Origin: a virus
Reading direction: 5' to 3' (one strand)
DNA length: 11,320 nucleotides
Virus genome (UHGV): UHGV-0170512
The position numbers and the translations under genes are program-made. This document shows positions 1 through 10,553 of the stretch, piece after piece; within the stretch, counting starts at the first letter, position 1; each line of letters opens with the position of its first letter. The notes under the pieces were generated by a model. That model ran no database searches. It was given only the letters and a program-made list of their open reading frames with translations, and was not told the origin of the DNA.

Positions 1-758
1 CCACAGTGTGGACAGGGCCAGTACCAGCGACGGCGATCACCACGGTTATAGAGCGACAGGATCCCCGTGGTTGGTGGAGCCTCATGCGGTGAAGTCCGTC
101 GCCATTTCACATCCTTCACATCCCTGCCGGGGGAACTCTCCACCAGCGTCATACCACTGGACATAAATGTGGTGGTACGTTTTGAGGCAAGAGAGAAAGC
201 ATCCCCCTCGCCATCAATATCTTCCGGAAAACGGTCATAATCCGTCAGCGCGACGCATTTATAATCTGATGAGGACATGATATTGACTGACGGCCAGCCG
301 ATTTTCAGGTAGTTACCAGCAAGGAATGTTCTGTCATAAACGTTGTTGTCATTTTTGTTCGGACTCAGGCGACTGACCACTTCCGGGCTGACGCGAAACG
401 TTCTGGCGAGTCGTTTTTTGGAGTGTTCGCGGGCTTTTTCCTCCGTCATCTGAATGATCAGCATATCAGCAGGATCGCAAATCACGTTGTAAATCACCCA
501 GCCGTCAATCAGGCCGATAGTCTTGCCGGTTCGTGCCGGGCCAACAAATATCACTGCGTCGTATTCACGCGAGGCCAGGCAGTTCATCGGCTCAATAACA
601 TACGGTGCCACCAGCGGATCCCACGGGACTGAGTTCCCTGCCCCCATGGGCACCCGCATATACTGAGCAACGGCATCAGCAACCCGCATTCGTCTCGGTG
701 CGCGAAGGATATAACCTGAATCGGTTCGTGCTGCCTTTGCGGTTTCCTGATTCAGCAT
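1..758 (-). CDS. Phage terminase large subunit (lambda gpA-like), N-terminal part; gene continues past the window start
   Basis: Minus-strand frame is open from ATG at 758-756 to the window edge; absent from the ORF track because no stop lies inside the window. My hand translation starts MLNQETAKAARTDSGYILRAPRR, contains a Walker-A-like GPARTGKT, and ends WYWPCPHC at the edge, resembling lambda gpA (..ACPHCG). The ATG overlaps the stop of the upstream small-subunit gene by one base (TAATG junction). Confidence 0.8.
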   Translation of the reverse strand, partial: MLNQETAKAARTDSGYILRAPRRMRVADAVAQYMRVPMGAGNSVPWDPLVAPYVIEPMNCLASREYDAVIFVGPARTGKTIGLIDGWVIYNVICDPADMLIIQMTEEKAREHSKKRLARTFRVSPEVVSRLSPNKNDNNVYDRTFLAGNYLKIGWPSVNIMSSSDYKCVALTDYDRFPEDIDGEGDAFSLASKRTTTFMSSGMTLVESSPGRDVKDVKWRRTSPHEAPPTTGILSLYNRGDRRRWYWPCPHC

Positions 759-1249
759 TACTCCTCCTGCTGTAATTCCTCCTCATCATCCGCACCTGCT
801 TCGGTCACCCGCAGGGCTATCTGATCGCGCAGATCATCAATAATGGACTGAACACGGCTCACAGCGGCAGGCTGCAGACCGCAGTCACGTTCCAGAATAT
901 CCGGTAATGTCTCCAGCACCTGCACGACCGCTTTTGCCCAGATGGCAAACTCCCGTCTGACATCACTGGCCGGAATGAGTTGTGCCGTTTCCTGTTCGAA
1001 CTTAAGACGCTCACGTTCAGACTGATACCAGGCTTTGCGTTCATGTGGATCCATTTCGCCCTCAGCAACCGGCGGTGGTAACCCCATAAATTCAGTCAGA
1101 ATATCGGTCAACCGGTATAGCTTGAGTTTGTCATGTCCACCAGCGGGACGAATGTTTTTCAGTCTTGCCACGACAGTCTGGCGGTGCAGACCAGATAAAG
1201 CCGCCAGTTGATTAATATTCAGCACCAGGTTTTTCAACTCATGATCCAT
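758..1249 (-). CDS. Phage terminase small subunit (Nu1/NohA-like, N-terminal HTH)
   Basis: 163-aa ORF from the track. N-terminus MDHELKNLVLNINQLAALSGLHRQTV has the helix-turn-helix layout of Nu1-type small terminases; acidic C-terminus; directly precedes and overlaps the large-subunit gene. Confidence 0.7.
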   Translation of the reverse strand: MDHELKNLVLNINQLAALSGLHRQTVVARLKNIRPAGGHDKLKLYRLTDILTEFMGLPPPVAEGEMDPHERKAWYQSERERLKFEQETAQLIPASDVRREFAIWAKAVVQVLETLPDILERDCGLQPAAVSRVQSIIDDLRDQIALRVTEAGADDEEELQQEE

Positions 1250-1863
1250 ATTTCCTCCGGAGAGCTTTAAACATGCATCGTGCGAACAACTTTAAGAAAA
1301 CGCGTTCGATGTCGAACAAAAAACACTCAATTCGACATGCAAAAAACAAATAACCATTAATAATCAATAAGATGCAAAGATGATGGTGGCCGATAAAAAT
1401 GCAAAAACTAGCCTTTTTCCGCGACGCTCCCGCCCCGTGGCAGGCCACCCCACCGGGAGGACCCGTCAGCCTGACAGCCATGACGAACGTCTGATACAGC
1501 GCCTTGCATGAATGGCATCGGGATAATCCAGAAAGGAATAGCATCGTGCCCACAAGAATCTGTGTGAGTATCCTGTTTCTTCCACCCCCGCACAGGACTG
1601 GCGAGCATGAGGGACAAACCCGCGAACCATAAACGCGGTAAAAACCCGGTGTGCATCGTTTTTGATTATTCCCGCACACTCTCGCAGAAGGAGTTCCCCG
1701 TCGGGCTACGGTCTCTGTTAATACGGGAATACGGCGACGATACAGCGCATGATGTGTCAGGCTTGAATACCTTTATCCGTTAAAAGGGATATCAGTTAAG
1801 TTATCCCGTGCAGGGTATAAGCCATTATCAAGCCCCCCGTAGATAGGCTTTGTAATGACATCT
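1250..1863. other. ~600 bp noncoding spacer between rha and the terminase genes, with ATGCAAA(A)AC direct repeats and short palindromes; candidate terminase-binding/packaging-control region or ncRNA
   Basis: Only Cys-rich, overlapping, Met-poor ORFs in the track (1239..1679, 1408..1656), judged spurious. ATGCAAAAAC at 1337-1346 and 1399-1408 plus ATGCAAAG at 1372-1379; near-palindrome GTTCGATGTCGAAC around 1303-1316 with TTCGACAT inverted copy at 1331-1338. Confidence 0.3.
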
Positions 1864-3727: not shown

Positions 3728-3790
3728 GGATATTTATCAGGATTTATCGGTTTCTGCCCACGGACAGGTTTATCTGTTCCGGTCAGTGAC

Positions 3791-4145: not shown

Positions 4146-4361
4146 TTACTCTCCCCGTGCCGCCTTACGACGGTCCTCTCTGATTTTGAAATACAGGTTA
4201 GTCAGATATGTCAGCAGCCCAAACAGCAGACTTCCCAGCACGCCTATTGCCGCCCACTGAGACGGGGAAACCCTGTCCAGCAACTGCAGGAACCAGTAGC
4301 CCGTTCCCACCGCTGACGTGGTGTATGACACACCTGTTGTGATTTTTTCCATCTGGTCCAT
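4146..4361 (-). CDS. Pinholin, phage 21 S21-like (class II holin) with dual-start motif
   Basis: Track ORF 4146..4466 trimmed to the internal start [10 protein letters not shown]. The C-terminal two thirds, [51 protein letters not shown], are near-identical to P21 S21 as I recall it; 71 aa. Met1 and Met4 (MDQM) resemble the S21 antiholin/holin dual start. Confidence 0.85.
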
Positions 4362-4510
4362 ACCCCGTCTCCCGTTATCCGGAAGCTGACAACAATAAAA
4401 AAGCCACCAGTTAACTACTGATGGCTCTGATAACTCATGCAAGCGTCTCAGACGACCCACTGACACTACCGGTGAGTTTAACGATACCTTCCATTTGACT
4501 GGCTCACTTT

Positions 4511-4869
4511 TTATGATGATGCCGGTGCATTTATCTCCAGCGCCAGACTTTCTATCTCAACGCCATACGTTGCATTTTTGGTAATATCCGTCAGCGTCAG
4601 TGCATTTAGTCCCACTGCCAGACTGTCTTTTATGGCCTGGAATGCCGGGCCAGTACGATGACGTAGTATCACTCCGGCTCAGTTGCACCACTGACCACCA
4701 CATCACCTTCTGCTGCAATCGCCTGCATCAGGGTATAAGGGGTTATGGCCACCGGACTACCAAACGGCTGCCAGCCCTCTTTCAGTTTATGTGTCAGCTT
4801 TTCCGCAAGATCTGACGGCGGCGCCGCCCTGACAACATCATAGTGTTTAAATGCCATGGTTCTTTCCAC
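4511..4869 (-). pseudogene. DUF1737-like gene (NanS-p N-terminal-domain-like), apparently frameshifted/truncated
   Basis: Track ORF 4669..4869 (66 aa, MERTMAFKHYDVVRAAPPSDLAEKL...) stops at 4669-4671; a second stop-free frame of 55 codons ([55 protein letters not shown]) opens just after a stop at 4679-4681 and runs to 4511, overlapping the first frame in 4669-4678. Consistent with a single indel. The first Met may be the third residue (MAFKHYDVV). Confidence 0.35.
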
Positions 4870-5117
4870 TATCTGAAAAATAATTCTTTAAAATACCTGA
4901 CATGTAATACAGAAAAAACACAAAACTATACCTTAAATAAAAACCTGATTATCAAGCAGATATGCATGGATAAACTACAAGACGAGATATAAACCACCCT
5001 GCATTTAAATAAACAATAAACAACATCAGAAAAATAATTCTGCTCTATGGTTTACATTCAAAAATATCATTTATACTTTTCAGGACATCACCAGCAAGGC
5101 ATAAACAAGGAAACCAA

Positions 5118-5453
5118 ATGAAGTGGATTGTGATTGATACAGTTATCCAGCCATCATGCGGAATATCTTTTTCAGTCATATGGAGTAAAATAAAATTAAT
5201 AATCTGGTATCAATCGGATGCTTTCTTACCTCCTGAAAGTATATTTACACTGACTCACACAGGCATCATGCTCAATAACAAAGTGCTACCTGTAACCATT
5301 TACAACGTAGTACCATTCAATAAAACATTCTGGAATTTAATCAAAAACAGCCAGGAATGCCCTACAAATACAGATAACGTATTGAATGAATGCTTTAATA
5401 ACCGTTGCACTCTGCAAATATGTCCTTATGGACTAAAACAACAAAGTCCATAA
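5118..5453 (+). CDS. Hypothetical 111-aa protein, AT-rich convergent moron ORF
   Basis: Only credible plus-strand ORF in the window. Strong SD AAGGAA 7 nt upstream of the ATG at 5118, preceded by a ~250 bp very AT-rich stretch (4870-5117). Visibly lower GC than the phage backbone; 5 Cys; no recognisable family. Confidence 0.45.
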
Positions 5454-5900: not shown

Positions 5901-6227
5901 CTACCCCAGATGAGTAATCCGAAGTTCATCCATACCACAGGTCCTGGCTATTCTGTTGTACTCCTGAACAAGAGCAAATAATTCTGAATTAGCAACCATG
6001 AACTCATCGCTAACCCTCTGTATAGCATCACTATTCAGAATAATAACGTCTCTTCCCGAAAGACGATCAGGAGTACAAAACAAAACTGTCAAACGGCTGA
6101 AGGCCTTTGCTCGTGCTGCATTGACTATATCAATACGCTGCCTAAGGATGAAACACCCCGACGCCTCATCAATATTCACTCTACCCACACCATATGAATG
6201 ATAAATATTTAATGCTGAAAAAACCAT
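5901..6227 (-). CDS. Hypothetical protein (108 aa from the internal ATG); doubtful
   Basis: Track ORF 5901..6254 starts at TTG; the first ATG is at 6227-6225 (MVFSALNIYH...) with a weak SD. No recognisable motifs; immediately downstream of the tRNA cluster. Confidence 0.25.
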   Translation of the reverse strand: MVFSALNIYHSYGVGRVNIDEASGCFILRQRIDIVNAARAKAFSRLTVLFCTPDRLSGRDVIILNSDAIQRVSDEFMVANSELFALVQEYNRIARTCGMDELRITHLG

Positions 6228-6364
6228 TAGACCGTATAACAAACACTCAATCAATACTTAACAGAACTTTTATTTTTGACAAACATATAATATTTTCAAC
6301 AATATCCTGAGCCAGGTATATTCCAGTATAAGGCTCTGCCGGAAGGAATCTGGAAGAATGAATA

Positions 6365-6441
6365 TGGCGCGTTGTACTGGATTCGAACCACTGACCGATT
6401 GCTTAGAAGGCAATTGCTCTGTCCTGCTGAGCTAACAACGC
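6365..6441 (-). tRNA. tRNA-Arg (anticodon UCU)
   Basis: Minus strand GCGTTGTTAGCTCAGCAGGACAGAGCAATTGCCTTCTAAGCAATCGGTCAGTGGTTCGAATCCAGTACAACGCGCCA: 7-bp acceptor stem, D arm GCTC/GAGC, anticodon loop CTTCTAA, T loop TTCGAAT, encoded CCA. One G:G mismatch in the T stem. Confidence 0.8.
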
Positions 6442-6454
6442 AGAATACCGATAA

Positions 6455-6531
6455 TGGACCACCATCGGGGACCCGAACTCCGCGCAACCAGCTTCGAAAG
6501 CTGGCGCTCTTTCCTGATGAGCTAATGGCGG
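6455..6531 (-). tRNA. tRNA-Arg (anticodon UCG)
   Basis: Minus strand CCGCCATTAGCTCATCAGGAAAGAGCGCCAGCTTTCGAAGCTGGTTGCGCGGAGTTCGGGTCCCCGATGGTGGTCCA: acceptor stem with one G:U pair, perfect anticodon stem CCAGC/GCTGG, loop TTTCGAA, encoded CCA. Non-canonical T loop TTCGGGT (G at position 58) and one A:C mismatch in the T stem. Confidence 0.7.
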
Positions 6532-6538
6532 TATGTGA

Positions 6539-6614
6539 TGGTGGCCCTTGCTGGATTTGAACCAGCGACCTGGCGATTATGAGTCGCTCGCTCTCACCAC
6601 TGAGCTAAAGGGCC
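6539..6614 (-). tRNA. tRNA with CAU anticodon (Ile2-type, ileX-like, or Met)
   Basis: Minus strand GGCCCTTTAGCTCAGTGGTGAGAGCGAGCGACTCATAATCGCCAGGTCGCTGGTTCAAATCCAGCAAGGGCCACCA: perfect acceptor and T stems, anticodon loop CTCATAA; closely resembles the E. coli ileX tRNA as I recall it. Confidence 0.85.
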
Positions 6615-6736: not shown

Positions 6737-7456
6737 TTAACGAACTCTGACTACATTAATTTCAAAGTCATCAATCTGCCCGCTATTAAGTATAACGAAT
6801 GCAGAACTCCCATTACTGTACGATTTCGATAAAACCAGACGATCATCATAGCGTGCAAGAACGTAATACCAAGTATTCTCATAGTGGATCGTCTGATATT
6901 CCCTCTTAAACTGGGGTTTATACCAACCGGCAATAAGAGAGAATGTCCAGAAATAAATCATGAATCCAGCCATAATAAACTCAATTCGGTGATGGCGAAT
7001 AAAAGACACTTCCGAAAAACATTTGACTGAAATAAGTCTTCTTCCTGACCTGACAAAAAGCGTAATTGTAAAGGCAGCAATAACACAAAAAAACAGCACA
7101 TCTGGCTCAACGTGCTGATGAATTACCGAAAACTCCAGAACAGGCGGAATAAAAAGCAGCAATATTGCCAGAAAAAGTCTGATAAAACTCAAATTCTGTA
7201 TATTGTTTTTTTGTTTTATGCCTAAAAAGAAAACAATACCTACTCCCCATCCAGTAAGGAATATAACGATAACGCTCACAGCATAAAACAAACTTCGGGC
7301 CACATCATCAACGCCAACCCCGACGATCCACCATGGAAAGCCATAGTAAAAGGAAGTCCCCCATCCATAGAAATAAGCGCTTCCCCATCCAAGACAGCCC
7401 ATATAAGCAATAAAAAGTGAAGAGTTCCTCAGCAGAGTGCTGTCATCCATACCCAT
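6737..7456 (-). CDS. Uncharacterised polytopic membrane protein (about 5 predicted TM helices plus ~60-aa C-terminal soluble tail)
   Basis: 239-aa ORF, first gene after the tR'-like terminator. Successive hydrophobic, aromatic-rich segments (FIAYMGCLGWGSAYFYGWG..., LFYAVSVIVIFLTGWGVGIVFFLGI, FIRLFLAILLLFIPPVLEF, VLFFCVIAAFTITLFV, IMAGFMIYFWTFSLIAGWY). Visibly AT-rich. Likely start is the second ATG (7450), with GAGAG 6 nt upstream. Confidence 0.6.
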   Translation of the reverse strand: MGMDDSTLLRNSSLFIAYMGCLGWGSAYFYGWGTSFYYGFPWWIVGVGVDDVARSLFYAVSVIVIFLTGWGVGIVFFLGIKQKNNIQNLSFIRLFLAILLLFIPPVLEFSVIHQHVEPDVLFFCVIAAFTITLFVRSGRRLISVKCFSEVSFIRHHRIEFIMAGFMIYFWTFSLIAGWYKPQFKREYQTIHYENTWYYVLARYDDRLVLSKSYSNGSSAFVILNSGQIDDFEINVVRVR

Positions 7457-10397: not shown

Positions 10398-10553
10398 TTA
10401 CTCCTCAGGTTCGTAAGCTGTGAAGACAGCGACCTCCGTCTGGCCGGTTCGGATTCGTACCTCGCAGAGGTCTTTCCTCGTTACCAGTGCCGTCACTATG
10501 ACGGTTAAACAGATGACGATCAGGGCGATTAACATCGCCTTTTGCTGCTTCAT
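10398..10553 (-). CDS. hok: Hok-family type I toxin (HokD/RelF-like), 51 aa
   Basis: Hand-translated, below the ORF-track size cutoff: MKQQKAMLIALIVICLTVIVTALVTRKDLCEVRIRTGQTEVAVFTAYEPEE. Single TM segment and Hok/Gef signature; SD AGGAGAAG 6 nt upstream of the ATG. Confidence 0.85.
   Translation of the reverse strand: MKQQKAMLIALIVICLTVIVTALVTRKDLCEVRIRTGQTEVAVFTAYEPEE

Follow-up and report, generated by a model that had tools for sequence, protein, structure and literature searches.

NanS-p, the sialate O-acetylesterase of Stx and lambdoid prophages (933W L0105; z1466; phi24B gp84, vb_24B_21), is encoded by nanS-p (yjhS), which follows the Q/tRNA/toxin region in the late transcript and lies just upstream of holin S. 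Its N-terminal domain, DUF1737, has a published fold of one helix and three strands, and it has recently been assigned a role of its own in phi24B, in which residues 2–57 of gp84 (NanS-p) are reported to form a capsid-decorating protein that binds as a hexamer to the central hexons of the T=9 capsid and is apparently cleaved from the esterase after residues 54–57 (bioRxiv 10.64898/2026.04.10.717836). According to the same preprint, most DUF1737 proteins in InterPro consist of this single domain (bioRxiv 10.64898/2026.04.10.717836). An older suggestion holds that DUF1737 resembles the essential region of lambda CIII (PMC1838920). A sequence search of the PDB for a solved DUF1737 chain returned NanS and NanS-p C-terminal domains only.

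Three intact genes served for comparison, from Stx1a phage LC567819 (L002), Stx2 phage 86 (L001), and E. coli WP4-S18-ESBL-09 (L004). The last of these is the closest relative and encodes a 617-aa "SASA family carbohydrate esterase" of three parts: DUF1737 at about residues 1–57 (Pfam match 3–50), a SASA/NanS esterase at residues 59–379, which matches PDB 3pt5, the NanS (YjhS) of the E. coli chromosome, and a lectin-like C-terminal domain at residues 421–613 (PDB match 6yp6; DUF6645).

The window, i.e., the whole analysed stretch of 11,320 nucleotides of the virus genome UHGV-0170512, represents the late region of a lambdoid E. coli prophage, carried on the minus strand. Its genes follow one another on this strand as a DUF968 protein, RusA, antiterminator Q (8517–7696), three tRNAs (6614–6365), an iraM-like gene in the opposite orientation (5118–5453), the remnant discussed here (4869–4511), a class II holin (4361–4146), DUF1327, lysozyme, Rz, and a Rha-family protein. 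The arrangement of Q, tRNAs, iraM-like gene, remnant, holin, DUF1327, lysozyme, and Rz matches that of nanS-p loci, in which the gene upstream of the holin measures about 1.85–1.9 kb, in line with the figure of about 1.9 kb that the original prediction had given for this slot. The iraM-like anti-adapter gene (NCBIfam PRK09919, 162 bits; no Pfam match) runs against the late genes directly upstream of the remnant, lies in an AT-rich stretch (33% GC at 4801–5200), and accompanies intact as well as deleted nanS-p in relatives.

Two segments of the locus align with intact nanS-p, at either end of the gene, the first 210 nt of the remnant being 95–97.5% and the last 143 nt 96–98% identical to their counterparts. 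The first block, window 4857–4648, corresponds to nt 1–210 of the intact gene without gaps (95–97.5% identity to the genes of the Stx1a phage and WP4-S18-ESBL-09), and the gap-free alignment extends over 4857–4638, i.e., nt 1–220 (95.5–97.5% identity). The second block, window 4653–4511, comprises the last 143 nt including the stop codon; it is 98% identical to positions 5235–5398 of L004 and 95.7% identical to Stx2 phage 86, with whose nanS-p stop codon that of the remnant coincides. Nucleotide homology at both gene ends, in the slot between the Q/tRNA region and holin S, identifies the locus as orthologous to nanS-p, and the earlier suggestion of a NanS-p-type remnant from which the bulk of the gene had been deleted is borne out: 1,507 of the 1,854 nt are absent relative to intact relatives, namely nt 211–1717, which hold codons 71–571 and part of codon 572.

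The alignment that the original prediction had proposed for locating the breakpoints places them inside a 16-nt repeat. The two homology blocks overlap by 16 nt, CTGGCCCGGCATTCCA, which represent one copy of an imperfect direct repeat, CTGGCCsGGCAkTCCA. In the intact L004 gene, the repeat is present as CTGGCCGGGCAGTCCA at 3728–3743 and as CTGGCCCGGCATTCCA at 5235–5250, the copies being identical at 14 of 16 positions and spaced exactly 1,507 nt from start to start. The junction in the window (4638–4653, minus strand) is the surviving 3'-type copy, CTGGCCCGGCATTCCA; since this copy is retained, the crossover lies in or before the perfect core CTGGCC (4653–4648). A junction of this kind is the usual signature of deletion between short repeats. 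As a first step in the history of the locus, the alignments show a 1,507-nt deletion between the 16-nt imperfect direct repeats, with the last 46 codons left in the -1 frame. Because 1507 = 3x502+1, the reading frame of the 3' stub is shifted by one base, and the frame change on which the original prediction was built thus follows from a deletion length that is not a multiple of three.

The deletion has its 5' edge inside the catalytic-serine motif (VLA|GQSN) and removes this motif together with the entire SASA esterase domain and the greater part of the lectin-like domain at the C-terminus. Nothing homologous to the chromosomal NanS is left at the locus, as the segment that corresponds to it (residues 59–379 of the intact relative) falls within the deleted part. 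Consistently, neither ORF1 nor ORF2, the two reading frames of the remnant, has a SASA match in Pfam, and of the lectin-like domain residues 572–617 alone remain, in another frame than the DUF1737 part. Because the whole catalytic domain is lost, the locus should be incapable of yielding an esterase.

The first of these frames, ORF1, is the 5' remnant of nanS-p and occupies 4669–4857 on the minus strand, from the ATG at 4857 to the TGA at 4671–4669, encoding a stand-alone DUF1737 of 62 aa. A mechanical ORF call had placed its start at an upstream GTG (4869..4669, minus strand, 66 aa); the ATG at 4857 is the likely true start, and the pseudogene annotated by RefSeq on the identical sequence of strain SK1144 begins at the same ATG. 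ORF1 covers the whole Pfam DUF1737 profile (PF08410; positions 1–53 of 53, 62 bits, E 4e-17) and thus has the N-terminal domain that characterizes NanS-p. Free-standing DUF1737 proteins of phages and prophages are likewise complete domains of similar size; ORF1 differs from them in its origin, since it was formed within E. coli by recent shortening of a gene with three domains and did not descend as a small gene, and in the out-of-frame 3' stub of that gene behind it.

The second frame had been noted as a 55-codon open stretch that begins within 10 nt of the end of a 66-aa ORF stopping at 4669, and these coordinates are exact: the -1 frame relative to ORF1 is free of stops from 4678 to 4514, up to the TAA at 4513–4511. 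On its own, such a stretch is weak evidence, because a frame scan found 17% of all 55-codon stretches in the window to be stop-free; it acquires meaning through homology, because the -1 frame is the native frame of the NanS-p C-terminus. The 3' remnant proper (4511–4653, minus strand) consists of the last 46 codons, Gly572–Ser617 of the 617-aa relative, followed by the TAA at 4513–4511, and 43 of these 46 residues are identical to those of the closest intact NanS-p protein. ORF2, a mechanical 53-aa ORF (4511–4672, minus strand), lies within the open stretch, starts at a GTG at 4672 that overlaps the ORF1 stop as GTGA, and matched no Pfam or NCBIfam family in profile searches. It is not a separate gene but a by-product of what is left of the nanS-p 3' end.

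Unlike the frame change, the stop codon of ORF1 was not produced by the deletion; it lies upstream of the junction. At codon 63, the window reads GAG TGA TAC and the Stx1a phage gene GAT TGG TAC, in an ungapped alignment in which the L004 protein reads EPEWYY; intact genes carry GAG or GAT followed by TGG TAC at this point, i.e., EPEW or EPDW. The stop at 4669–4671 (minus strand) is thus a secondary nonsense codon, due to a TGG>TGA substitution of Trp63. The intermediate form also exists, since TGG is combined with the identical junction in strain SF-468 (L006) and in nine IMG/VR loci. In these 10 loci, the ORF1 product is 75 aa long and ends in ...VLARHSRP, frame translation taking it to an out-of-frame TAA at 4630–4632 (minus strand), five codons past the junction. 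A search with exact 32-mers in 5,426 complete E. coli genomes recovered TGA with the junction in 729 and TGG with the junction in 109, the latter group including the type strain DSM 30083. That both forms exist shows a second step, in which TGG>TGA at codon 63 shortened the product from 75 to 62 aa, and the simplest history, on grounds of parsimony, is that the deletion came first and the nonsense mutation later. The 5' end of the TGG alleles is recombinant and diverges more (173 of 186 positions identical in ORF1), so that the two forms might also go back to reversion, to gene conversion, or to the same repeat having undergone deletion twice.

Taken together, the segment 4857–4511 on the minus strand is very probably a nanS-p copy that was inactivated by the 1,507-nt repeat-mediated deletion and subsequently shortened further in its product by TGG>TGA, with ORF2 as debris; no evidence contradicting this history was encountered. 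The allele is widespread within one species. At least 80% of a 391-nt stretch at the locus is present in 850 of the 5,426 complete E. coli genomes, and the junction, with TGA or TGG, occurs in 838 (about 15%). It is likewise found on 81 IMG/VR contigs, and in E. coli only among 185,579 species-representative genomes of GTDB. The literature search found no published description of this deletion allele; the degenerate state itself is already known, as the RefSeq annotation of SK1144 lists ORF1 among its pseudogenes ([quoted passage not shown]), with ORF2 annotated there as a "hypothetical protein" (WP_001327246.1), and the decay is common, specific to E. coli, and mechanistically ordinary.

Sequence variation among 74 TGA-type alleles distinguishes the two frames. 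The upstream non-coding region holds 17 segregating sites in 131 nt, ORF1 holds 8 in 186 nt (5 nonsynonymous and 4 synonymous changes; pN/pS ~0.39), and the part that belongs to ORF2 only holds 15 in 134 nt (13 nonsynonymous and 2 synonymous; pN/pS ~2.3). Segregating sites are sparser in ORF1 than in ORF2 (Fisher p = 0.027) and than in the upstream region (p = 0.006), whereas the two ORFs do not differ significantly in their nonsynonymous as against synonymous changes (p = 0.15). Among the 13 nonsynonymous changes in ORF2 is a stop at Q12, carried by four of the 74 loci, and one further locus shows a rearrangement at the ORF2 3' end; this pattern marks ORF2 as decaying, non-functional debris under relaxed constraint. 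ORF1 is uninterrupted in all 84 alleles in which it is readable, and its variants include W29G and D7A; recombination with intact paralogues may have introduced variants. The data provide weak evidence of constraint on ORF1. The term "dead" applies to the esterase only; the locus could still specify a complete, free-standing DUF1737 from the late transcript; of the earlier statement that the DUF1737 gene looks degenerate, the part concerning the esterase gene stands, whereas the DUF1737 domain itself is complete and uninterrupted.

The abrupt change from a stop in one frame to a long open stretch in the neighbouring frame within 10 nt had suggested that a single-nucleotide indel near 4660–4685 had split one DUF1737 gene. 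This reading is refuted: the alignments to intact genes are ungapped over 4857–4638, the stop arises by TGG>TGA, the frame changes at 4653–4648, downstream of that stop, and ORF2 corresponds to residues 572–617 of the intact protein and not to the residues that follow codon 63. Homologues that end at the same position are numerous but carry the same allele, and the second frame matches the C-terminus of NanS-p proteins that bear DUF1737. One megablast row, in which 226 nt of the query were aligned to 227 nt of the record, reflects an alignment running into the junction repeat and contains no true indel. A sequencing or assembly error in the window, conceivable as a general matter, is excluded, given that the 32-mer over TGA and junction recurs in 729 independent genomes, that the 391-nt stretch is 100% identical in SK1144, and that the junction is present on the 81 IMG/VR contigs. 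The GTGA overlap, together with the position of ORF2 in the -1 frame, would fit a programmed -1 ribosomal frameshift or translational coupling of the two ORFs, for which the chances are nonetheless minimal. No slippery heptamer of the form X XXY YYZ is found at the overlap (CCGGAGTGA / CCGGAGTGATAC), the sole GGAG overlaps the GTG, so that its spacing is unsuitable for a Shine-Dalgarno sequence, and the overlap was absent before the TGA mutation; moreover, ORF2 shows the aforementioned stop and nonsynonymous excess and comprises the last 46 of about 190 residues of the 6yp6 domain, too few to fold alone. Stand-alone DUF1737 proteins in other lineages could be taken to indicate that the short form is ancestral and that an esterase module was inserted into it to give full-length nanS-p. 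This reversal of direction is scarcely credible, as the stubs are out of frame with each other, the 3' stub corresponds to the end of a structural domain, and the junction consists of a single copy of a repeat which in intact genes occurs on either side of the segment missing here; among the GTDB species representatives, moreover, the junction is confined to E. coli.

The explanation that deserves the most consideration beside simple decay is that ORF1 survived as a small functional gene whose 62-aa DUF1737 product would act on its own, for example as a phi24B-like capsid decorator or in a CIII-like role, ORF2 being junk. We regard this as unlikely, though far less so than the preceding alternatives. 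Room for a retained function is left by the lower number of segregating sites in ORF1 than in its surroundings, and further points in its favour are the complete domain, the unbroken frame in all readable alleles, the lower pN/pS, the likeness of DUF1737 to the CIII region, the prevalence of single-domain proteins in InterPro, and the nearly exact correspondence of ORF1 to the fragment that is retained on the phi24B capsid, residues 2–57 (bioRxiv 10.64898/2026.04.10.717836). An HMMER search against 1.84 billion cluster representatives also returned distant homologues of 80–134 aa that consist of DUF1737 only, some in tandem; its close matches are mostly fragments or other truncations and carry little information on the natural lengths of relatives. 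Against this reading, an N-terminal domain survives any truncation that retains the 5' end, without selection, and the same search recovered many differently truncated nanS-p fragments; RefSeq treats ORF1 as a pseudogene, and the nonsignificant nonsynonymous/synonymous contrast, the W29G and D7A variants, and possible import from intact paralogues weaken the argument from constraint. Furthermore, near-identical DUF1737 sequences stand beside unrelated head modules, so that a matched capsid partner is not evident: the head of SK1144 is of the lambda type and includes a separate decoration protein, that of the Stx1a phage belongs to a different type, and phi24B has a T=9 capsid. The window holds no capsid genes, and its packaging module differs again from that of SK1144. 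At the sequence level, ORF1 is a complete domain with 59% identity to the phi24B-type DUF1737, the two differing in the loop with the anchoring tyrosine; a single-sequence AlphaFold2 model of ORF1 was of low confidence (pLDDT 61), too low for comparison with the published fold. A more specific version, in which ORF1 would be retained as a genetically "pre-cleaved" capsid decorator and the TGA, now in 729 genomes as opposed to 109 with TGG, favoured because it trims the 13-residue out-of-frame tail, seems somewhat more doubtful still.

On the preferred reading, a decayed nanS-p copy, the prophage adds no NanS-p esterase to its host, and matches to DUF1737 only should be left out of per-genome counts of nanS-p. 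What is annotated in hundreds of genomes as a 53-aa "hypothetical protein" (WP_001327246.1 and variants) is the out-of-frame end of a gene otherwise deleted, and the exact junction 32-mer provides a convenient marker of the allele. Beyond such annotation hygiene, the importance of the locus is slight; the phi24B work makes capsid decoration by a free DUF1737 domain testable.

Some further features of the window and its relatives may be recorded. Two other truncated nanS-p products (P0001 and P0005) have their breaks only a few codons from the LAGQSN-coding site at which the present deletion begins: in the former, VLAG is followed by the fused C-terminus of a lambda-K-like C40 peptidase, and in the latter the sequence diverges after LAGQ; this could be a recurrent breakpoint region, or a coincidence. 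Between the remnant and the holin start lies a terminator-like hairpin (4400–4428, minus strand; 12 pairs followed by a T run). The hairpin also shows the mechanical 106-aa holin ORF (4466–4146) to be over-extended; in RefSeq relatives, the annotated holin begins at the counterpart of position 4361. The tRNAs at 6365–6614 (minus strand) comprise Arg-tct, Arg-tcg, and a tRNA with a CAT anticodon (Ile according to RefSeq). A 117-aa ORF at 5901–6254 (minus strand) matched no family, and the homologous stretch of RefSeq relatives carries no annotation beyond a small DUF3927 protein and a partial pseudogene. A 239-aa hydrophobic ORF at 6737–7456 (minus strand; GC ~39–42%) has no Pfam or NCBIfam match, and the segment 6630–7590 between Q and the tRNAs is absent from SK1144, in other respects the closest relative, which gives it the look of an inserted moron. 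The packaging module occupies window positions 1–1570, with a small terminase at 1249–758 and the start of a GpA-like large terminase that runs off the left end; it has no nucleotide match in SK1144, while the lysis region is 95–99% identical, a contrast that is the usual lambdoid mosaicism. Finally, a hokD-type toxin ORF is located at 10398–10553 on the minus strand.
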